Source: a virus (lineage: Duplodnaviria > Heunggongvirae > Uroviricota > Caudoviricetes). From it: 10,773 bases of DNA. This document shows positions 644 through 10,773 of the stretch, piece by piece. Position 1 is the first letter of the stretch. Each line of letters starts with the position of its first letter. The DNA lies in the IMG/VR virus record IMGVR_UViG_2681813269_000008; one strand, 5' to 3'. The notes under the pieces are model-generated. The model saw only the letters and a program-made list of their open reading frames with translations, was not told where the DNA came from and did not search any database. A program made the position numbers and the translations under genes.

Positions 644-710
644 ACCCGCCAGCAATCTGAGTAGCGAAAGCTGTTCATCCCCAATGTTTTTGCTGGCGGG
701 TCCTTTTTTC
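644..710 (+). terminator. Long-stem hairpin plus T-run; intrinsic terminator and/or 3' end of a candidate small RNA (plus strand)
   Basis: Perfect 11-bp arms CCCGCCAGCAA (645-655) / TTGCTGGCGGG (690-700) enclose a 34-nt loop with a possible internal GAAA tetraloop stem, followed by TTTTTT (704-709). A second weaker hairpin and T-run lies at about 722-757. Confidence 0.45.
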
Positions 711-1148
711 TACGGTCCTCCTCCCCGGAGGGGGGCATTTCATTATTTTTCTAATCGTTACTGGTGAGAAGGCGGAAGAAAAAGCCAGTTCTTCGCCCCT
801 AAATAACAGCATGATTCCAGTCCATGCAAAATCTGATTTCCAGCTCACACATACCGAGCGCTGTACAAAAAACCGCCAGCCAAGGCAGTTAAGAGTGTGT
901 TCCCGGGGTTTGCTTAGAATATTTTGTAAGTTGTCCGAAGAGATATTTACAACACCAGAATGATGAATCATCAGTCCCCTGCCAGAGGTTCACTACGTAA
1001 CCTGACCGACAATGCACCATTCTGGTGCTGAAAAAAGAGCACTGGAACTGCAACAAAACAACATCACAGAACAGGAGATGGTAAGGAGTCAGACATTCCC
1101 ACACAATATTGTGTCAGTGCAAATAACAACCTTCGTCTCAAATCTCGC

Positions 1149-1223
<75 letters not shown>

Positions 1224-1226
1224 ATA

Positions 1227-1302
<76 letters not shown>

Positions 1303-1304
1303 GC

Positions 1305-1381
1305 TGGCCCACCACCGAGGACTCGAACCTCGCACCGTCAACTTAGAAGGTTGATGCTCTATCCGGATGAGCTAGTGGTGG
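1305..1381 (-). tRNA. tRNA-Arg (anticodon TCT)
   Basis: Minus-strand CCACCACTAGCTCATCCGGATAGAGCATCAACCTTCTAAGTTGACGGTGCGAGGTTCGAGTCCTCGGTGGTGGGCCA. Acceptor stem CCACCAC/GTGGTGG, anticodon stem TCAAC/GTTGA, loop CTTCTAA, encoded CCA. Confidence 0.88.
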
Positions 1382-1382
1382 T

Positions 1383-1459
1383 TGGTGGCCCTTGCTGGAC
1401 TTGAACCAGCGACCTGGCGATTATGAGTCGCTCGCTCTGACCAACTGAGCTAAAGGGCC
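1383..1459 (-). tRNA. tRNA with CAT anticodon, most likely tRNA-Ile2 (lysidine-modified), ileX/ileZ-like
   Basis: Minus-strand GGCCCTTTAGCTCAGTTGGTCAGAGCGAGCGACTCATAATCGCCAGGTCGCTGGTTCAAGTCCAGCAAGGGCCACCA. Anticodon loop CTCATAA. The body resembles E. coli tRNA-Ile2 rather than initiator or elongator tRNA-Met, as I recall them. Confidence 0.85.
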
Positions 1460-1547
1460 GGAGGCAGAATAATAACCATATGTCATCACATCTGCAAACT
1501 CATCTGACCACCAGCACGTTTAACGTCCTGTGCCGTTTTTCAGGTAT

Positions 1548-1573
1548 AAAAAAACCCGCTCATCGGCGGGTTT
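1548..1573 (-). terminator. Predicted rho-independent terminator (minus strand) downstream of the ORF6N-like gene
   Basis: Stem CCCGC (1555-1559) / GCGGG (1566-1570) with a 6-nt loop. On the minus strand it is followed by a 7-U run (complement of the A-run at 1548-1554). Confidence 0.6.
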
Positions 1574-1648
1574 AAGCTGTGTGGCGTAGTAACCACTCTT
1601 AACAGGATATTCAACTTTTTACGATCGTAAAGTTTTCGGAAAAAATTT

Positions 1649-2218
1649 TTAAAACCGCATCAACCGCTCCACCAGTTGCTCTTTACGGGCAACGATCCAC
1701 CCGTGTTGCTCCAGATAAAATTTAAACCGTTCCAGAGTACATACCATCGCATCGGCGGGTACCTTTTCCGTGAACTCAACCTGACCGTGTTTATCGAAGT
1801 GGCTCAGTAATGCGCATCCATCATTTTCGATAGATGTGTTTTGTGCCGCTGGTGGCTGTTTCTGGTTGAAATAACAGTCTTCCAGTTTTTCGAACACTTC
1901 CCACGCCTGATCGGTTTCGAGCATTTTGGCGTGACGGGCTGCGCCACGTTCTGTCCAGAGGATGAGGGAGCGAACGTTACGGGCAATTTTCACAGAAACT
2001 CTTAAAGAGTTTTCGTTCTTCAACTCTCGTAACGCATCACCTTCTATCAGGAAAAAATGTTTACCTTCTATAAACCGTTCTTTGTTTCGATTGAAATTGT
2101 TTGTCAAACGCTGGCGCTCTGTTCCGTACAAATCAGCCAGCAGCTCTGTTGTCATGACAGGAAGATGGTTATGCGTAAGTGACGGGAGTTTTTCAATAGA
2201 CGTGCGATTCATAGACAT
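1649..2218 (-). CDS. ORF6N/KilA-N-like phage DNA-binding (antirepressor-like) protein; start uncertain
   Basis: The open frame runs 1649-2410 (253 aa). The conserved region starts near MSMNRTSIEKLPSLTHNHLPVMTTELLADLYGTERQRLTNNFNRNKERFIEGKHFFLIEGDALRELK...WTERGAARHAKMLETDQAWEVFEKL, which resembles the ORF6N domain by recall. An AAAGGA Shine-Dalgarno sits before the ATG pair at 2218/2212. The 64-codon upstream extension has no protein-like character. Confidence 0.6.
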   Translation of the reverse strand: MSMNRTSIEKLPSLTHNHLPVMTTELLADLYGTERQRLTNNFNRNKERFIEGKHFFLIEGDALRELKNENSLRVSVKIARNVRSLILWTERGAARHAKMLETDQAWEVFEKLEDCYFNQKQPPAAQNTSIENDGCALLSHFDKHGQVEFTEKVPADAMVCTLERFKFYLEQHGWIVARKEQLVERLMRF

Positions 2219-2573
2219 GTCCTTTCGAATATTTTGATTTACCCCTTTTGAGAGGGTGACCGGGCGCTCAAAACCGTCGAAAGTCGGCGGGCGTATTTCC
2301 ATTGCTGGTATTGTATTAGCCGCACACCCGGTCATAAACCAAGAATTCTGGACACAAAAAAACCACATGGCTATCGGGTGTGGATACCGCTTTCGAGGTG
2401 TTTTGAGCACCGCGGGGAAATGTAAACTGCAAACCTGAAACTGTCAACACCGTCAGGTTCCAATCATCGGGTGGTGAGACGCACAGGGTTGGAACTACCG
2501 GGAAACCGACCGGCGAGCTTTTCAGCTCCCCCATGCGCCCCACCATAATTCAGATGTGCGCGTGCATACGACA

Positions 2574-2597
2574 ATAAAAAACACGCTCGCGGCGTGT
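2574..2597 (-). terminator. tR'-like intrinsic terminator downstream of the late promoter (minus strand)
   Basis: Minus-strand ACACGC-CGCGA-GCGTGT hairpin (6-bp stem) followed by TTTTTTAT. It lies about 55-80 nt downstream of the predicted PR' start, as in lambdoid late leaders. Confidence 0.55.
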
Positions 2598-2658
2598 GTC
2601 TGTCGCGGTCTCTATCCGGGGTTCCAATCCCGACGCCAGATTTTGCTGGCGCGTGAGG

Positions 2659-2688
2659 AATATAGCCCCGGACAATGTGTCTGGTCAA
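2659..2688 (-). promoter_or_regulatory. PR'-like late promoter immediately downstream of Q
   Basis: Minus-strand TTGACC (-35, plus 2683-2688), 18-nt spacer, TATATT (-10, plus 2659-2664). It begins 5 bp after the Q stop codon, the canonical lambdoid position for PR'. Confidence 0.55.
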
Positions 2689-2692
2689 GCAC

Positions 2693-3079
2693 CTACATAA
2701 TTCGTTCTACGTATCTGTCCATCTCCAGCCGGATATCAAGCATCATCAACATGCCATCAATAACCCCTTCCGCTTTCTGCAGGCGCTTGCCAATACAGGT
2801 ATCCGAACACCCATGTTTCCGTGCCAGACTCATAAAAGTCATTCCACCTACGTAATAATCCACCAGCAAATCGTGCAAATCCTGATTTTTCTTGTTCAAC
2901 CGGGCCATACAGCCACAAATTATCATTGCATCATCATCAGAACACTGAGGGCGTGATTTCACTTTCGACGGAATTAACCCTTTAAAACCAGCAGCGATCG
3001 ACGCCCAGGATACATCTTCATGAGTGTTTGCAGCCCAAGCCCCCCACCGTTCCATAACCTGCTGAATATCACGCGCCAT
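2693..3079 (-). CDS. Late antiterminator Q (phage antitermination Q family, QuuD/phage 82-like)
   Basis: [121 protein letters not shown] closely resembles QuuD-type Q proteins as I recall them. The track ORF extends to 3100, but the ATG at 3079 has a good AGGTGA Shine-Dalgarno and overlaps the rusA stop. Confidence 0.85.
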
Positions 3080-3440
3080 CGTTATCACCTGTGATTTCAT
3101 AAATCTTCACGCCCAGTCGCCCACCAGGAACGAGCTGACCGCGCACAATATTGATTTCATCAAACTGCTCGTCGTCTATGAGTAGTCCGGCATGCGTCAG
3201 CGCATCCAGTGGTGCTTTCAGGATATTGTCCAGGTCACGACGGCGCTTATCCGGTGGCTCTGCAATAATCTTTATCGCCAGCCTTCCGGACAGGTTTAAT
3301 TTCAGCCGCTGCTGGCGAACAATTAGCGTCACATCACGGCGATAACGCTCACCAACTTTTGATACAAAATATGTGCTGCCACGACGTCGCCAGTAAGTAT
3401 TCACCGTCGGCGGATAAGGTAAAATAAACTCATGGCGCAT
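3069..3440 (-). CDS. rusA: Holliday junction resolvase RusA
   Basis: 123 aa: [21 protein letters not shown]...[31 protein letters not shown]...[11 protein letters not shown]. This matches the RusA hallmark motifs (PPS/TxN, DxRRRDLDN, D/E acidic cluster). The start overlaps the upstream stop (TGATG). Confidence 0.9.
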
Positions 3441-3697
3441 CAGCGCAGCACCTCCTGCACCATTTTTTCAAACTTTCCAACTTTGGTTTCCAGCTCTGCC
3501 ACACAATCAACGAGCTCATCCACCGCTTTTTGTGCGCGATGTTTCGCCTGCATCAGTTCCCTGAGCGCTGGCACCATATCCCGACGAATGGCATCTTTTG
3601 TTACACCTGTTTTTTCCAGTTGTTCCGCCTGTCGCAACATTTCCTGCGCGTGTTTACGCAATTGTTCAGAGGTAAAAGTCATTGTCTGGTTGTTCAA
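3440..3697 (-). CDS. Small hypothetical phage protein, predicted coiled-coil, unknown function
   Basis: 85-codon frame between the helicase and rusA. The 5'-most start is TTG, overlapping the helicase stop; an internal ATG lies at 3682. Charged, heptad-like sequence (EQLRKHAQEMLRQAEQLEK...). No family recognised. Confidence 0.5.
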   Translation of the reverse strand: MNNQTMTFTSEQLRKHAQEMLRQAEQLEKTGVTKDAIRRDMVPALRELMQAKHRAQKAVDELVDCVAELETKVGKFEKMVQEVLR

Positions 3698-5085
3698 AAG
3701 AAACGCTCCATCTTACTGCTGTCGGTACGTGTATTGCTGTATCTGCGCGGCTGGGGCTGCCGCATTGGGGTGGAAAGAACCTGTGCGCTTTCCTGGTCCA
3801 CAGGCAGAAAATGTCCGTTATAAAAACGCCGGTAAATCGTCCCCAGAGAACCGTTACGTTGTTTCGTGATATTAATTTCTGCTATGCCTGTAGCCTGTGT
3901 ATCCGGGTTGTACACTTCATCCCTGTAAAGCATCAGAATGATGTCTGCATCCGCCTCTATTTCTCCGGAATTTTTCAGGTCTGAGTTCATGGGACGTTTA
4001 TTGGGTCTGGACTCCACACCGCGGGAGAGCTGGCTCAGCGCAATCAACGGAAAACCACCGGATTTTGCCAGGCCTTTAAGCCCCTTTGAGATTTCACCCA
4101 CGGCAAGGTCATGACGCCCCGTGGTTCGGGTTTTTATCAGCCCGAGATAATCAACCACCACCAGCGCCGTTTCCGGATGTTTAATCAGATGGTGTTTCGT
4201 TGTTGCGCATATCTCATCAATGGTCAGGTTCGCCTGGTCCACCATCCAGATATTGCGCCCGGTCATCCGCCCCACCCCTTGTGAGAAACGCGCCCAGTCT
4301 TCATCTTCAAAGTGAGCCACAGATTTCAGGCGTGATACTGGCATCCCTCCAGCCGCAGACACCATACGTTCACCAATCTGGATGTTCGCCATCTCCATGG
4401 TGAACAGAAGCACACCATGCCCCTGCTCAGTCACCTTGTCGATGATGTCCAGCGCAAGTTCGGTTTTCCCCATCGAAGGACGGGCGGCAATGAATACCAG
4501 GTCTCCGGGCTCCATACCGCCTGTTTTTGCGTCCAGTTCATCAATACCGGTCATCAACGTCCTGGATTTCTCCAGCCCCTGATTCCGGCATTCAACACGC
4601 TCAACCACTTCCGGAAGCACATCATCAATATGTACCGGCTGAATGACGCCCTTTCCTGTCGACAGTGTGACCATCATGTTCTGCGCATCCTTCAGGGCAT
4701 CTTCAGCTGCTTCACAGGTATGCGCATCACGTAATTTCTGCAGCGCCTCATTCAGTGTTTTTTCTGCATCGCGCAGTGCGGCATTGCGCCGCAACGCTGC
4801 AACATAGTGCTCCAGTGAAGACTTCACCCAGGTTTTACGCCCGGTATCAGTAATCACCGGGGCAAGTTCCGGCATCTCATTACACAACAGCACGGGGTCA
4901 ATCACTCCTGAAACACGGGCCTGTCTGCAGATGCCTGTGTAGATATCCCGATACGCTCGTACAGAAAAAATGTCCGCCGGTAGTGTGATCAGAATATCCA
5001 TCACTTCATGATCTGCCCCACGCAGAAAGAATGCGCCAATGACAGCGCCTTCCAGGTCATCATTACGCCAGACTGGTGTTGTCAT
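3694..5085 (-). CDS. Phage replicative DNA helicase, DnaB family
   Basis: DnaB N-terminal-like region ([13 protein letters not shown]...) and RecA-like C-terminal domain with Walker [10 protein letters not shown], Walker B VVVDYLGL and [20 protein letters not shown]. The ATG at 5085 has a GAGGTG Shine-Dalgarno 9 nt upstream. The track ORF reaching 5145 begins at a GTG inside IS-derived sequence and is an artefactual extension. Confidence 0.9.
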
Positions 5086-5140
5086 GCAGCCACACCTCTG
5101 ATACAAGAACGGTAGCTGGGCCAGTTGAACGACAACCAGT

Positions 5141-5255
5141 ATCACTTAACCCATTACTGGCTTGCTGCCGTAGATATTCCCGTGGCGAGCGATAACCCAG
5201 TGCACTATGCGGATGCCATTCGTTATAATGCTCGAACGCCTCTGCAAGGTTCTTT
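5141..5255 (-). mobile_element. IS2-like internal fragment (3' end of the transposase gene) lacking the terminal inverted repeat
   Basis: The minus strand encodes ...[38 protein letters not shown], matching the C-terminus of the IS2 transposase as I recall it. The same sequence recurs at 10675-10773, where it is preceded by the 32-bp IS2-like terminus that is absent here. Confidence 0.6.
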
Positions 5256-5522
5256 AAAGCCGAAGCTGTCAGAACGGTTCTTGAAAATCAACTTTCGATC
5301 AGTGAAGGCGCTTCCCGATTATCTCTTCCTGAAGGCACTTTAGGACAATGGGTTACCGCCGCCAGAAAAGGGCTCGGTACTCCTGGTTCCCGCACGGTGG
5401 CTGAACTGGAATCTGAAATTCTGCAACTGCGTAAGGCGTTAAATGAAGCTCGCCTTGAGCGAGATATATTAAAAAAAGCAACAGCGTATTTTGCACAGGA
5501 GTCGCTGAAAAATACGCGTTAA
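5256..5522 (+). pseudogene. IS3-family orfA, N-terminally truncated (no start codon)
   Basis: Frame reads ...[89 protein letters not shown], a helix-turn-helix plus leucine-zipper OrfA. An in-frame TAA lies just upstream and there is no ATG. Confidence 0.7.
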
Positions 5523-5557
5523 TCGAACAATGGCGACAACAATTTCCCATTGAAGCG

Positions 5558-6376
5558 ATGTGTCAGGTATTTGGTGTATCCAGGAGCGGTTATTACAACT
5601 GGGTACAGCATGAACCCTCAGACAGAAAACAAAGTGATGAGCGGCTAAAACTGGAGATTAAGGTGGCACATATCCGCACTCGCGAAACATATGGAACCCG
5701 GCGGCTCCAGACGGAGCTGGCAGAGAATGGCATCATCGTTGGTCGTGACCGACTGGCACGTCTTCGTAAGGAGCTAAGGCTACGCTGTAAGCAGAAACGC
5801 AAGTTCAGAGCGACTACGAACTCGAACCACAATCTGCCAGTTGCGCCAAATCTGCTGAACCAGACGTTCGCTCCTACAGCACCAAATCAGGTCTGGGTGG
5901 CGGACCTGACGTATGTTGCCACACAGGAGGGATGGTTGTACCTCGCTGGCATCAAAGATGTTTATACGTGCGAAATTGTCGGCTACGCCATGGGAGAGCG
6001 CATGACAAAAGAGCTGACAGGTAAAGCCCTGTTTATGGCGCTCAGGAGCCAGCGCCCACCTGCCGGGCTAATCCACCACTCTGATCGAGGTTCACAGTAC
6101 TGCGCATACGATTACCGGGTCATACAGGAGCAGTCTGGTCTGAAAACATCAATGTCGCGTAAAGGTAACTGTTACGACAACGCTCCGATGGAAAGCTTCT
6201 GGGGAACGCTGAAAAATGAGAGCCTGAGCCACTATCGTTTTAATAACCGGGATGAAGCCATCTCAGTAATACGGGAATACATTGAGATTTTCTACAATCG
6301 TCAGCGTCGTCACTCTCGTCTGGGGAATATCTCCCCGGCAGCCTTCAGGGAAAAATATCATCAGATGGCTGCTTAA
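5558..6376 (+). CDS. IS3-family transposase OrfB (DDE integrase catalytic domain)
   Basis: 272 aa with the DDE triad context WVADLTY, HHSDRGSQY and CYDNAPMESFWGTLK. The frame is open from the slippery site at 5471, consistent with an OrfAB frameshift fusion. Because orfA is truncated, a functional fusion is unlikely. Confidence 0.85.
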   Translation: MCQVFGVSRSGYYNWVQHEPSDRKQSDERLKLEIKVAHIRTRETYGTRRLQTELAENGIIVGRDRLARLRKELRLRCKQKRKFRATTNSNHNLPVAPNLLNQTFAPTAPNQVWVADLTYVATQEGWLYLAGIKDVYTCEIVGYAMGERMTKELTGKALFMALRSQRPPAGLIHHSDRGSQYCAYDYRVIQEQSGLKTSMSRKGNCYDNAPMESFWGTLKNESLSHYRFNNRDEAISVIREYIEIFYNRQRRHSRLGNISPAAFREKYHQMAA

Positions 6377-6469
6377 AAAAAGAACAAATGGTAGTGTCCG
6401 CTATTGCCAGTACACCTCACACTCTATCCAACAAACCACCCACAGTTAATCGGAATAAAAGCAGAGTGC

Positions 6470-6595
6470 TTATGAATGATCGCACGCCCGAAGGTTAGTA
6501 TTTCTGCACAGCAATTTTGCAAAAAAAGGCGATCATTCATAACTTAAACGTCTTTCAGTCACTCCGGGATTTCCCATCATCGCAGACTGAAAGAC
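6470..6595. repeat. Two adjacent perfect inverted repeats (14-bp arms and 11-bp arms) in the copy-2 flank
   Basis: TTATGAATGATCGC (6470-6483) pairs with GCGATCATTCATAA (6529-6542) across a 45-nt spacer. GTCTTTCAGTC (6550-6560) pairs with GACTGAAAGAC (6585-6595) across a 24-nt spacer. The second ends 6 bp from the tRNA-Gly 3' end. Confidence 0.6.
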
Positions 6596-6601
6596 TCTGA
6601 C

Positions 6602-6676
<75 letters not shown>

Positions 6677-6679
6677 ATA

Positions 6680-6755
<76 letters not shown>

Positions 6756-6757
6756 GC

Positions 6758-6834
6758 TGGCCCACCACCGAGGACTCGAACCTCGCACCGTCAACTTAGA
6801 AGGTTGATGCTCTATCCGGATGAGCTAGTGGTGG
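6758..6834 (-). tRNA. tRNA-Arg (anticodon TCT), copy 2
   Basis: Identical to 1305-1381 (offset 5453). Confidence 0.88.
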
Positions 6835-6835
6835 T

Positions 6836-6912
6836 TGGTGGCCCTTGCTGGACTTGAACCAGCGACCTGGCGATTATGAGTCGCTCGCTCTGACCAACTG
6901 AGCTAAAGGGCC
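6836..6912 (-). tRNA. tRNA-Ile2-like (anticodon CAT), copy 2
   Basis: Identical to 1383-1459 (offset 5453). Confidence 0.85.
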
Positions 6913-7000
6913 GGAGGCAGAATAATAACCATATGTCATCACATCTGCAAACTCATCTGACCACCAGCACGTTTAACGTCCTGTGCCGTTTTTCAGGTAT

Positions 7001-7026
7001 AAAAAAACCCGCTCATCGGCGGGTTT
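7001..7026 (-). terminator. Predicted rho-independent terminator, copy 2
   Basis: Identical to 1548-1573 (offset 5453). Confidence 0.6.
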
Positions 7027-7101
7027 AAGCTGTGTGGCGTAGTAACCACTCTTAACAGGATATTCAACTTTTTACGATCGTAAAGTTTTCGGAAAAAATT
7101 T

Positions 7102-7671
7102 TTAAAACCGCATCAACCGCTCCACCAGTTGCTCTTTACGGGCAACGATCCACCCGTGTTGCTCCAGATAAAATTTAAACCGTTCCAGAGTACATACCAT
7201 CGCATCGGCGGGTACCTTTTCCGTGAACTCAACCTGACCGTGTTTATCGAAGTGGCTCAGTAATGCGCATCCATCATTTTCGATAGATGTGTTTTGTGCC
7301 GCTGGTGGCTGTTTCTGGTTGAAATAACAGTCTTCCAGTTTTTCGAACACTTCCCACGCCTGATCGGTTTCGAGCATTTTGGCGTGACGGGCTGCGCCAC
7401 GTTCTGTCCAGAGGATGAGGGAGCGAACGTTACGGGCAATTTTCACAGAAACTCTTAAAGAGTTTTCGTTCTTCAACTCTCGTAACGCATCACCTTCTAT
7501 CAGGAAAAAATGTTTACCTTCTATAAACCGTTCTTTGTTTCGATTGAAATTGTTTGTCAAACGCTGGCGCTCTGTTCCGTACAAATCAGCCAGCAGCTCT
7601 GTTGTCATGACAGGAAGATGGTTATGCGTAAGTGACGGGAGTTTTTCAATAGACGTGCGATTCATAGACAT
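7102..7671 (-). CDS. ORF6N/KilA-N-like phage DNA-binding (antirepressor-like) protein, copy 2
   Basis: Identical to 1649-2218; the track ORF 7102-7863 is the same extended frame. Confidence 0.6.
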   Translation of the reverse strand: MSMNRTSIEKLPSLTHNHLPVMTTELLADLYGTERQRLTNNFNRNKERFIEGKHFFLIEGDALRELKNENSLRVSVKIARNVRSLILWTERGAARHAKMLETDQAWEVFEKLEDCYFNQKQPPAAQNTSIENDGCALLSHFDKHGQVEFTEKVPADAMVCTLERFKFYLEQHGWIVARKEQLVERLMRF

Positions 7672-8026
7672 GTCCTTTCGAATATTTTGATTTACCCCTT
7701 TTGAGAGGGTGACCGGGCGCTCAAAACCGTCGAAAGTCGGCGGGCGTATTTCCATTGCTGGTATTGTATTAGCCGCACACCCGGTCATAAACCAAGAATT
7801 CTGGACACAAAAAAACCACATGGCTATCGGGTGTGGATACCGCTTTCGAGGTGTTTTGAGCACCGCGGGGAAATGTAAACTGCAAACCTGAAACTGTCAA
7901 CACCGTCAGGTTCCAATCATCGGGTGGTGAGACGCACAGGGTTGGAACTACCGGGAAACCGACCGGCGAGCTTTTCAGCTCCCCCATGCGCCCCACCATA
8001 ATTCAGATGTGCGCGTGCATACGACA

Positions 8027-8050
8027 ATAAAAAACACGCTCGCGGCGTGT
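8027..8050 (-). terminator. tR'-like intrinsic terminator, copy 2
   Basis: Identical to 2574-2597 (offset 5453). Confidence 0.55.
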
Positions 8051-8111
8051 GTCTGTCGCGGTCTCTATCCGGGGTTCCAATCCCGACGCCAGATTTTGCT
8101 GGCGCGTGAGG

Positions 8112-8141
8112 AATATAGCCCCGGACAATGTGTCTGGTCAA
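8112..8141 (-). promoter_or_regulatory. PR'-like late promoter, copy 2
   Basis: Identical to 2659-2688 (offset 5453). Confidence 0.55.
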
Positions 8142-8145
8142 GCAC

Positions 8146-8532
8146 CTACATAATTCGTTCTACGTATCTGTCCATCTCCAGCCGGATATCAAGCATCATC
8201 AACATGCCATCAATAACCCCTTCCGCTTTCTGCAGGCGCTTGCCAATACAGGTATCCGAACACCCATGTTTCCGTGCCAGACTCATAAAAGTCATTCCAC
8301 CTACGTAATAATCCACCAGCAAATCGTGCAAATCCTGATTTTTCTTGTTCAACCGGGCCATACAGCCACAAATTATCATTGCATCATCATCAGAACACTG
8401 AGGGCGTGATTTCACTTTCGACGGAATTAACCCTTTAAAACCAGCAGCGATCGACGCCCAGGATACATCTTCATGAGTGTTTGCAGCCCAAGCCCCCCAC
8501 CGTTCCATAACCTGCTGAATATCACGCGCCAT
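8146..8532 (-). CDS. Late antiterminator Q, copy 2
   Basis: Identical to 2693-3079; track ORF 8146-8553. Confidence 0.85.
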
Positions 8533-8893
8533 CGTTATCACCTGTGATTTCATAAATCTTCACGCCCAGTCGCCCACCAGGAACGAGCTGACCGCGCACA
8601 ATATTGATTTCATCAAACTGCTCGTCGTCTATGAGTAGTCCGGCATGCGTCAGCGCATCCAGTGGTGCTTTCAGGATATTGTCCAGGTCACGACGGCGCT
8701 TATCCGGTGGCTCTGCAATAATCTTTATCGCCAGCCTTCCGGACAGGTTTAATTTCAGCCGCTGCTGGCGAACAATTAGCGTCACATCACGGCGATAACG
8801 CTCACCAACTTTTGATACAAAATATGTGCTGCCACGACGTCGCCAGTAAGTATTCACCGTCGGCGGATAAGGTAAAATAAACTCATGGCGCAT
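8522..8893 (-). CDS. rusA: Holliday junction resolvase RusA, copy 2
   Basis: Identical to 3069-3440. Confidence 0.9.
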
Positions 8894-9150
8894 CAGCGCA
8901 GCACCTCCTGCACCATTTTTTCAAACTTTCCAACTTTGGTTTCCAGCTCTGCCACACAATCAACGAGCTCATCCACCGCTTTTTGTGCGCGATGTTTCGC
9001 CTGCATCAGTTCCCTGAGCGCTGGCACCATATCCCGACGAATGGCATCTTTTGTTACACCTGTTTTTTCCAGTTGTTCCGCCTGTCGCAACATTTCCTGC
9101 GCGTGTTTACGCAATTGTTCAGAGGTAAAAGTCATTGTCTGGTTGTTCAA
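8893..9150 (-). CDS. Small hypothetical coiled-coil phage protein, copy 2
   Basis: Identical to 3440-3697. Confidence 0.5.
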   Translation of the reverse strand: MNNQTMTFTSEQLRKHAQEMLRQAEQLEKTGVTKDAIRRDMVPALRELMQAKHRAQKAVDELVDCVAELETKVGKFEKMVQEVLR

Positions 9151-10538
9151 AAGAAACGCTCCATCTTACTGCTGTCGGTACGTGTATTGCTGTATCTGCG
9201 CGGCTGGGGCTGCCGCATTGGGGTGGAAAGAACCTGTGCGCTTTCCTGGTCCACAGGCAGAAAATGTCCGTTATAAAAACGCCGGTAAATCGTCCCCAGA
9301 GAACCGTTACGTTGTTTCGTGATATTAATTTCTGCTATGCCTGTAGCCTGTGTATCCGGGTTGTACACTTCATCCCTGTAAAGCATCAGAATGATGTCTG
9401 CATCCGCCTCTATTTCTCCGGAATTTTTCAGGTCTGAGTTCATGGGACGTTTATTGGGTCTGGACTCCACACCGCGGGAGAGCTGGCTCAGCGCAATCAA
9501 CGGAAAACCACCGGATTTTGCCAGGCCTTTAAGCCCCTTTGAGATTTCACCCACGGCAAGGTCATGACGCCCCGTGGTTCGGGTTTTTATCAGCCCGAGA
9601 TAATCAACCACCACCAGCGCCGTTTCCGGATGTTTAATCAGATGGTGTTTCGTTGTTGCGCATATCTCATCAATGGTCAGGTTCGCCTGGTCCACCATCC
9701 AGATATTGCGCCCGGTCATCCGCCCCACCCCTTGTGAGAAACGCGCCCAGTCTTCATCTTCAAAGTGAGCCACAGATTTCAGGCGTGATACTGGCATCCC
9801 TCCAGCCGCAGACACCATACGTTCACCAATCTGGATGTTCGCCATCTCCATGGTGAACAGAAGCACACCATGCCCCTGCTCAGTCACCTTGTCGATGATG
9901 TCCAGCGCAAGTTCGGTTTTCCCCATCGAAGGACGGGCGGCAATGAATACCAGGTCTCCGGGCTCCATACCGCCTGTTTTTGCGTCCAGTTCATCAATAC
10001 CGGTCATCAACGTCCTGGATTTCTCCAGCCCCTGATTCCGGCATTCAACACGCTCAACCACTTCCGGAAGCACATCATCAATATGTACCGGCTGAATGAC
10101 GCCCTTTCCTGTCGACAGTGTGACCATCATGTTCTGCGCATCCTTCAGGGCATCTTCAGCTGCTTCACAGGTATGCGCATCACGTAATTTCTGCAGCGCC
10201 TCATTCAGTGTTTTTTCTGCATCGCGCAGTGCGGCATTGCGCCGCAACGCTGCAACATAGTGCTCCAGTGAAGACTTCACCCAGGTTTTACGCCCGGTAT
10301 CAGTAATCACCGGGGCAAGTTCCGGCATCTCATTACACAACAGCACGGGGTCAATCACTCCTGAAACACGGGCCTGTCTGCAGATGCCTGTGTAGATATC
10401 CCGATACGCTCGTACAGAAAAAATGTCCGCCGGTAGTGTGATCAGAATATCCATCACTTCATGATCTGCCCCACGCAGAAAGAATGCGCCAATGACAGCG
10501 CCTTCCAGGTCATCATTACGCCAGACTGGTGTTGTCAT
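9147..10538 (-). CDS. Phage replicative DNA helicase, DnaB family, copy 2
   Basis: Identical to 3694-5085. The 510-aa track ORF (to 10679) is an artefactual in-frame extension across 49 bp of flank and the IS2-like terminus. Confidence 0.9.
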   Translation of the reverse strand: MTTPVWRNDDLEGAVIGAFFLRGADHEVMDILITLPADIFSVRAYRDIYTGICRQARVSGVIDPVLLCNEMPELAPVITDTGRKTWVKSSLEHYVAALRRNAALRDAEKTLNEALQKLRDAHTCEAAEDALKDAQNMMVTLSTGKGVIQPVHIDDVLPEVVERVECRNQGLEKSRTLMTGIDELDAKTGGMEPGDLVFIAARPSMGKTELALDIIDKVTEQGHGVLLFTMEMANIQIGERMVSAAGGMPVSRLKSVAHFEDEDWARFSQGVGRMTGRNIWMVDQANLTIDEICATTKHHLIKHPETALVVVDYLGLIKTRTTGRHDLAVGEISKGLKGLAKSGGFPLIALSQLSRGVESRPNKRPMNSDLKNSGEIEADADIILMLYRDEVYNPDTQATGIAEINITKQRNGSLGTIYRRFYNGHFLPVDQESAQVLSTPMRQPQPRRYSNTRTDSSKMERFF

Positions 10539-10642
10539 GCAGCCACACCTCTGATACAAGAACGGTAGCTGGGCCAGTTGAACGACAACCAGTTGCGCCC
10601 CCCGTCTGTGATCCTGTCGGCAATGCGGGGGCTGATGAACGC
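10535..10642 (-). pseudogene. 3' remnant of the gene upstream of the helicase (probable replication initiator or helicase loader), cut by the IS2-like insertion
   Basis: Minus-strand frame ...[35 protein letters not shown] ends in a TGA that overlaps the helicase ATG (ATGA coupling). The frame is open right up to the IS2-like terminus at 10643. No family assignment is possible from 35 codons. Confidence 0.35.
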
Positions 10643-10773
10643 TGGATTTGCCCCTATATTTCCAGACACCTGTTATCACTTAACCCATTACTGGCTTGCT
10701 GCCGTAGATATTCCCGTGGCGAGCGATAACCCAGTGCACTATGCGGATGCCATTCGTTATAATGCTCGAACGC
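10643..10773 (-). mobile_element. IS2-like element, right terminus and 3' end of the transposase gene; runs off the window end
   Basis: TGGATTTGCCCCTATATTTCCAGACACCTGTTATCACTTAACCCATTAC... matches the reverse complement of the IS2 right inverted repeat as I recall it, with about one mismatch. The minus strand encodes the transposase C-terminus ...[10 protein letters not shown]. Confidence 0.6.

Follow-up and report, generated by a model that had tools for sequence, protein, structure and literature searches.

The window analysed here, a stretch of 10,773 nt from a virus of the Caudoviricetes (IMG/VR record IMGVR_UViG_2681813269_000008), carries on its minus strand a gene for an antiterminator Q of 135 amino acids (3100 to 2693) that belongs to the Q21/Q933W family and matches Pfam PF06530 over the full domain (176 bits). 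Its stop codon, TAG (2695-2693), is followed after 4 nt by a promoter on the same strand (2688 to 2659), composed of a -35 element TTGACC (2688-2683), a spacer of 18 nt and a -10 element TATATT (2664-2659), which in a promoter scan agrees with the consensus at 10 of 12 positions. The -10 element ends 6 nt ahead of the predicted RNA start, a G at 2652, and at +56 to +78 from this start lies an intrinsic terminator that comprises the hairpin ACACGCCGCGAGCGTGT (2597-2581), with a GC-rich stem of 6 bp, and a run of six Ts (2580-2575). The entire unit recurs base for base at 8141-8027 (minus strand; offset +5453; RNA 8105 to 8029). An earlier note on this DNA had described the near-consensus promoter directly after the Q stop, the hairpin and T-run downstream of it on the same strand, and the presence of the unit in both copies, and all of these observations hold. 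Consensus scans alone perform at chance level in this region, with three promoter-like sites against 2.3 expected and two terminator-like sites against 1.6; the unit is taken to be real not on account of these scans but because of a covariance-model match to isrK, the conservation of the -35 element and spacer, and a homologue in the Salmonella prophage Gifsy-1 that has been mapped experimentally.

The sequence between promoter and terminator matches the Rfam family isrK (RF01394) from model position 1 to 77 (2652 to 2576, minus strand) with 77.5 bits against a cut-off of 50 and E = 1.2e-15 in both copies, and the short RNA that had been predicted at 2575-2652 coincides with this match. All the Rfam matches on which we rely below (isrK, c4-a1b1, C4 and sRNA-Xcc1) lie on the minus strand and score above the curated cut-offs. 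IsrK of Salmonella has been mapped as an RNA of 77 nt (Padalon-Brauch 2008, PMC2330248); the RNA of the window is identical to Gifsy-1 IsrK at 67 of 77 positions, and the two isrK promoters align. Folding recovers the three hairpins of the family, including hairpin 1 (2652-2633), in which three pairs show compensatory changes among homologues, and hairpin 2 (2632-2617), which presents the loop 7-mer b1 TTGGAAC (2627-2621). Neither the fold energy of the single sequence (z = -1.25) nor the unrestricted duplex energies of IsrK (z about -1.5) are remarkable, and they are not counted as support. Several unrelated types of terminator occur among isrK homologues, and the terminator hairpin aligns out of register. 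Two ORFs that begin with TTG, one of 74 and one of 41 codons, overlap the stretch (2464 to 2688 and 2550 to 2675, minus strand), which raises the question of whether it encodes a small protein rather than an RNA. We reject a coding role, whose probability is next to nil, given that variation among homologues is compensatory in the stems, that their loops bear indels of 1 and 3 nt, that the region closes with an intrinsic terminator and that its homologue is a mapped non-coding RNA (PMC2330248).

The isrK match overlaps a second Rfam element, 'a1, b1 targets of C4 antisense RNA' (c4-a1b1, RF03163; 2665 to 2613, minus strand; 50.1 bits against 46.7), and is followed by a C4-type antisense RNA, the equivalent of STnc1160 (RF01695; 2550 to 2467, minus strand; 71 bits against 45), so that isrK, c4-a1b1 and C4 stand in the expected order. 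The C4 loop b' GTTCCAA (2495-2489) is complementary both to b1 and to b2 TTGGAAC (2463-2457), which repeats the 7-mer of the IsrK loop in the sense orientation just past C4. Embedded in this region is an orf45-like leader ORF of 76 codons (2546 to 2316, minus strand) with AUGs at +107 (2546) and +119 (2534), the same spots as in Gifsy-1; the published orf45 mutations A107 and 119-121 (Table 1 of PMC4825925) match the AUG positions of the window. The leader ORF ends within a structured leader that resembles sRNA-Xcc1 (RF02221; 2333 to 2250, minus strand; 77.4 bits against 53; second copy at 7703-7786). Beyond it begins, with ATG at 2218 or 2212, an ORF6N antirepressor-like gene that extends to 1649 (minus strand; Pfam PF10543, E = 9e-21), the counterpart of AnrP, whose ORF6N domain is the same as that of Gifsy-1 STM2616/AnrP. 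The sRNA-Xcc1-like element ends about 35 nt ahead of the start of this gene; an Xcc1 element is paired with an ORF6N-type gene in phage P13803 too, and the pairing has been reported for APSE phages.

When IMG/VR was scanned with a sequence pattern, 120 loci were recovered, among which the promoter-IsrK-C4 region takes 82 distinct forms and the IsrK RNA 55. The -35 sequence TTGACN is kept in all 82 regions and a spacer of 17-18 nt in 81; a perfect antisense copy of the b1 7-mer, b', is present within C4 in 81 of the 82, and a perfect sense copy, b2, just past C4 in 79. The loops fall into 13 specificity classes, and complementarity is perfect in every comparison within a class (13/13) and in none across classes (0/156). 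In unrelated genomes, 70 chance matches to the pattern served as a negative control, and none of them has the triple of b1, b' and b2. Judged from the sequences, this three-way covariation is the logic of c4 in phages P1 and P7, whereby specificity would be carried by the loops, and it agrees with helix b-I as described for Gifsy-1. At loci of the AGGAAC class (L003 4047-4270 and others) b1, b' and b2 carry single-base insertions in concert; in this class the b' and b2 sites lie within the orf45-like frame, which means that the peptide sequence is not conserved. The pattern appears to fit a leader ORF whose translation matters and whose product does not.

The unit also occurs outside the viral collection. 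A degenerate pattern search of genome contigs gave 76 hits, with about 120 chance matches expected by estimate, and six of the hits carry the b1/b'/b2 triple; these come from E. coli, Shigella flexneri, Salmonella enterica, Yersinia pestis, Y. similis and Pectobacterium odoriferum. The exact 41-nt pattern of the C4/Xcc1 junction has no match in species-representative genomes, the best match to window positions 2440-2700 among complete E. coli genomes is 95.8%, and identical DNA is present in the IMG/VR contigs L016, L073, L034 and L096.

Taken together, 2688 to 2575 and 8141 to 8027 very probably constitute an isrK gene (we put the probability at about 0.88), with a putative sigma-70 promoter, a predicted three-hairpin RNA of 77 nt and an intrinsic terminator, which would head a cassette for the control of an antirepressor. 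The element is a member of a curated and experimentally studied family and of an already known kind; beyond annotation it is a routine member, and public contigs contain identical copies of it.

The earlier note had assigned the same unit to PR'-tR', i.e. to the late promoter and its terminator, which in the lysogen would yield a short leader RNA of the 6S/StxS type until Q antiterminates; on such a reading Q would load onto the unit and transcription would proceed into the late genes. The position of the unit 4 nt past the Q stop and of a terminator about 75 nt downstream would suit this proposal, as would the late genes (a holin of the S21 type, 468 to 253) that come after it on the same strand; moreover, a gene of antiterminator type is directly upstream at 61 of 116 loci (22 PF06530, 15 PF06323, 23 DUF1133 and one PF03589). 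The promoter-RNA-terminator unit and its predicted ends stand, but the assignment to the late-leader system does not, and an identity with 6S or StxS is contradicted by the full-length isrK match and by the lack of homology between 2574-2688 and the PR'-tR' region of Stx phages. This lack of homology is found despite a Q that is about 80% identical to that of Stx phages at the amino acid level: the DNA homology to Stx-phage Q stops a few codons ahead of the stop codon, and the post-Q DNA of phages BP-4795 and Stx2a_WGPS9 gives no alignment to 2574-2688.

In the Stx phages the post-Q sequence consists of TTTACG, 16 nt, TATCAT and then ...AAGAGTGGTTAC...AACCCGCCGATGCGCGGGTTTTTTT..., and a homologue of this PR' sequence is intact elsewhere in the window, at 1631 to 1543 (85% identity, E = 1.6e-20). 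This PR'-like promoter and leader (1631 to 1546, minus strand) has a -35 element TTTACG (1631-1626), a -10 element TATCCT (1609-1604), a start near 1597 and a hairpin (1573-1552) that was flagged by the terminator scan, with a T-run to 1546; an identical second copy is located at 7084 to 6999 (minus strand). It covers the promoter and the first hairpin only, without the 74-nt 3' part of StxS. A weak Rfam hit to Trp_leader (1546-1619) sits on the PR'-like hairpin and looks spurious. In Stx phages, PR' transcription starts at a mapped site 258 nt ahead of tR' (PMC7547250); counted back by this distance from the second terminator of BP-4795, the site falls, by arithmetic, 7 nt past the TATCAT hexamer, at the position that aligns with the start in the window (the Sakai coordinates of PMC7547250 are offset from NC_002695.2). 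The longest string shared by the isrK and PR'-like promoter regions is 4 nt, which likewise speaks against the isrK promoter as a late promoter.

The PR'-like element follows the antirepressor stop codon and precedes tRNA-Met and the lysis genes, about 1 kb downstream of the isrK unit. Among loci with a Q of the same family, it abuts Q in 10 where Q is not followed by IsrK; only where IsrK does follow Q is it displaced, by 775-1056 nt in 19 of 22 such loci. A cassette (about 2692 to 1640) has been inserted between Q and PR' and has replaced the last codons of Q, which form its left edge. By sequence, 1631 to 1546 and 7084 to 6999 are likely to be the true late promoter and leader, and the late-leader idea appears to fit these positions instead of the isrK unit.

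The genes directly upstream of the promoter-IsrK-C4 unit are varied, with NinE at 33 loci, a DUF1133 protein at 23, a PF06530 Q at 22, a Q of the PF06323 (Q82) type at 15, a lambda-type Q (PF03589) at one, a Lar-like gene at two and others at the remainder; in phage Stx2 II the unit is part of the nin region, where it precedes Ant and is located upstream of Q. The occurrence of the same promoter and RNA behind NinE and behind unrelated Q families is incompatible with a Q-specific binding element, and the roughly 1.05-kb segment that comprises isrK, C4 with the embedded leader ORF and the ORF6N antirepressor gene is therefore a mobile cassette rather than a Q-specific late promoter. The next gene after the unit is the antirepressor and not a late gene, and in Gifsy-1 the promoter has been shown to drive isrK-orf45-anrP (PMC4825925). 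A role of the isrK unit as PR'-tR' is consequently very improbable, while Q-modified or early read-through polymerase may pass the isrK terminator as well. For annotation this removes a trap: in many Enterobacterales prophages a promoter-terminator unit that follows Q is not the late promoter but opens an antirepressor cassette of the IsrK/C4 type, beyond which the late promoter is to be found. A short RNA at 2652 to 2576 would accordingly count as an RNA that controls induction and has a defined specificity loop, not as a by-product of antitermination.

The closest studied relative is the Gifsy-1 locus (NC_010392), where Q (35026 to 34349) is followed by isrK (34316 to 34240), C4 (34214 to 34131), the ORF6N gene anrP (34076 to 33513) and isrJ (33480 to 33406), and then by tRNA-Arg and the lysis genes. 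The window shares with it a 77-nt three-hairpin RNA with an identical terminator hairpin and its own promoter directly past Q, next a C4/STnc1160 RNA with a complementary loop, and then an ORF6N antirepressor, a short leader RNA, tRNA and lysis genes. It differs in the specificity loop (GGAAC as opposed to GGCGT), in the family of the upstream Q (PF06530 as opposed to PF06323), in the leader ORF, which has 76 codons instead of 45 and stops short of the antirepressor start, in the inserted sRNA-Xcc1-like leader and in the presence of the locus in two copies. Expression, association with Hfq and trans-activation of antirepressor translation are documented for Gifsy-1 only (PMC4825925, PMC2330248). 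There, isrK-orf45-anrP is transcribed from the isrK promoter, some transcripts extend beyond the IsrK terminator, and free IsrK activates in trans the translation of a long RNA that is otherwise silent (Hershko-Shalev 2016, PMC4825925). Three other phage systems bear comparison with the locus.

The c4 antisense RNA, encoded in immI of phages P1 and P7, was reportedly described by Citron and Schuster in 1990. As is predicted for C4 of the window, c4 (RF01695 and RF03163; Rfam clan CL00128) is an antisense RNA that arises by processing of an antirepressor operon's leader, with target-like sequences upstream (a1/b1) and downstream (a2/b2) and with loops that define specificity classes. Unlike in P1 and P7, the upstream target-like element of the window is split from C4 by an intrinsic terminator, which would result in a free RNA of 77 nt, and the outcome that has been tested in Gifsy-1 is activation by this free upstream RNA. 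Inspection by eye also reveals a possible pairing of IsrK positions 16-24 with the 3' flank of b'. The 6S RNA of lambda and StxS resemble the RNA of the window as short, lysogen-made RNAs (expression in the window is a prediction) that have a promoter next to Q and an intrinsic terminator (PMC7547250); they have no sequence relation to 2574-2688, and the homologue of the StxS region is at 1631 to 1546. The CI RNA of satellite phage P4, with seqA and seqC, has been named as a structural analogue (PMC4825925): the likeness is one of structure, in that a leader RNA is processed from a transcript that bears complementary repeats on either side of it, whereas CI brings about premature termination of replication-gene transcription.

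By analogy with Gifsy-1, transcription, read-through and trans-activation would also be expected in the host of this phage. Transcripts that start at 2652 would mostly stop at 2576 and give rise to free IsrK, while a fraction would continue past the terminator into C4 and the leader ORF. On the long RNA the C4 loop would pair with the IsrK hairpin-2 region and keep the leader ORF untranslated; the minimum free energy fold of the first 213 nt has this pairing, like 'structure A' of the Gifsy-1 study (PMC4825925). Free IsrK could then compete in trans for b' of C4, which would open the leader ORF, permit synthesis of the antirepressor and push the prophage towards induction.

We can only infer that the antirepressor of the window is still coupled to IsrK and C4, because the junction ahead of the gene has been replaced by the sRNA-Xcc1-like leader, which is absent from the versions in Gifsy-1 and E. 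coli C311. In E. coli C311 the leader ORF abuts the ORF6N gene. Stop-start coupling of the Gifsy-1 type may not operate in the window, because a gap of about 100 nt between the leader ORF stop (2316) and the antirepressor start, the Xcc1-like element, a run of seven Ts (2362-2356, minus strand) and a promoter-like site intervene. This site (2447-2419, minus strand; TTGACA, 17 nt, TACATT; 10 of 12 consensus positions) stands exactly at the recombination junction after C4, and its TTGACA is two bases off the family consensus GGTGAT; either the site or the T-run, which lies between C4 and the antirepressor gene, could alter the feed of transcripts into the antirepressor.

The isrK-C4 pair might accordingly be an uncoupled remnant, whose RNAs are made without control of the ORF6N gene in cis and act in trans only or not at all. 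Homology to the canonical arrangement of E. coli C311 and Gifsy-1 ends at 2438, the segment 2411 to 2229 shares 89% identity with the Xcc1 leader of phage P13803, where the element comes after another gene, and the distance from the leader ORF to the antirepressor, with the T-run and the promoter-like site in between, would favour such a state. Set against this, the promoter, IsrK, b', b2 and both AUGs are all intact, no strong terminator is predicted from C4 to the antirepressor gene, and the arrangement is identical in the independent contigs L016, L073, L034 and L096, which suggests that it is maintained. We consider a remnant rather unlikely. Less probable still is that the pair has been cut loose from its own antirepressor gene and serves mainly as a trans-acting specificity pair of the GGAAC class on co-resident prophages of the same class; were this the case, the pair would impose or lift control of the antirepressor in those prophages, and the perfect duplication would double its dose.

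The duplication that holds both isrK copies is a perfect direct repeat of 3993 bp (1148-5140 and 6601-10593), which extends from the tRNAs through a DnaB-like helicase gene and reflects either a real duplication or an effect of assembly. The segment between the repeats (5141-6600) holds an ORF for an IS3-family transposase (5558-6376, plus strand). The 5' ends of the two helicase genes differ (5131-5239 and 10665-10773 are 97% identical, with a length difference of 81 nt), and the products have 483 and 510 amino acids, respectively. Single-copy versions of the repeat occur in contigs L073 and L016, and the IS junction is common to one contig (L096).

Four tRNA genes, for Met-CAT, Arg-TCT, Thr-TGT and Gly-TCC, occupy 1149-1459 and 6602-6912 (minus strand); as in Stx phages, they separate the PR'-like leader from the lysis genes. 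The phage-21-type holin gene S (468 to 253, minus strand; Pfam PF04971) is preceded by an ORF of 98 codons (675-971, minus strand) for which there is no Pfam match. In Gifsy-1 (L007) the equivalent position after the cassette is filled by IsrJ (33480-33406, minus strand). The Klebsiella phage ST11-VIM1phi8.1 (L205), which has no IsrK cassette, contains an isrJ match (1533-1611, plus strand; 57 bits against a cut-off of 37) that starts 16 nt past the stop codon of a Q of the Q82 family and lies ahead of tRNA and lysis genes; from this arrangement, IsrJ looks to be the PR' leader RNA of Q82-type phages.
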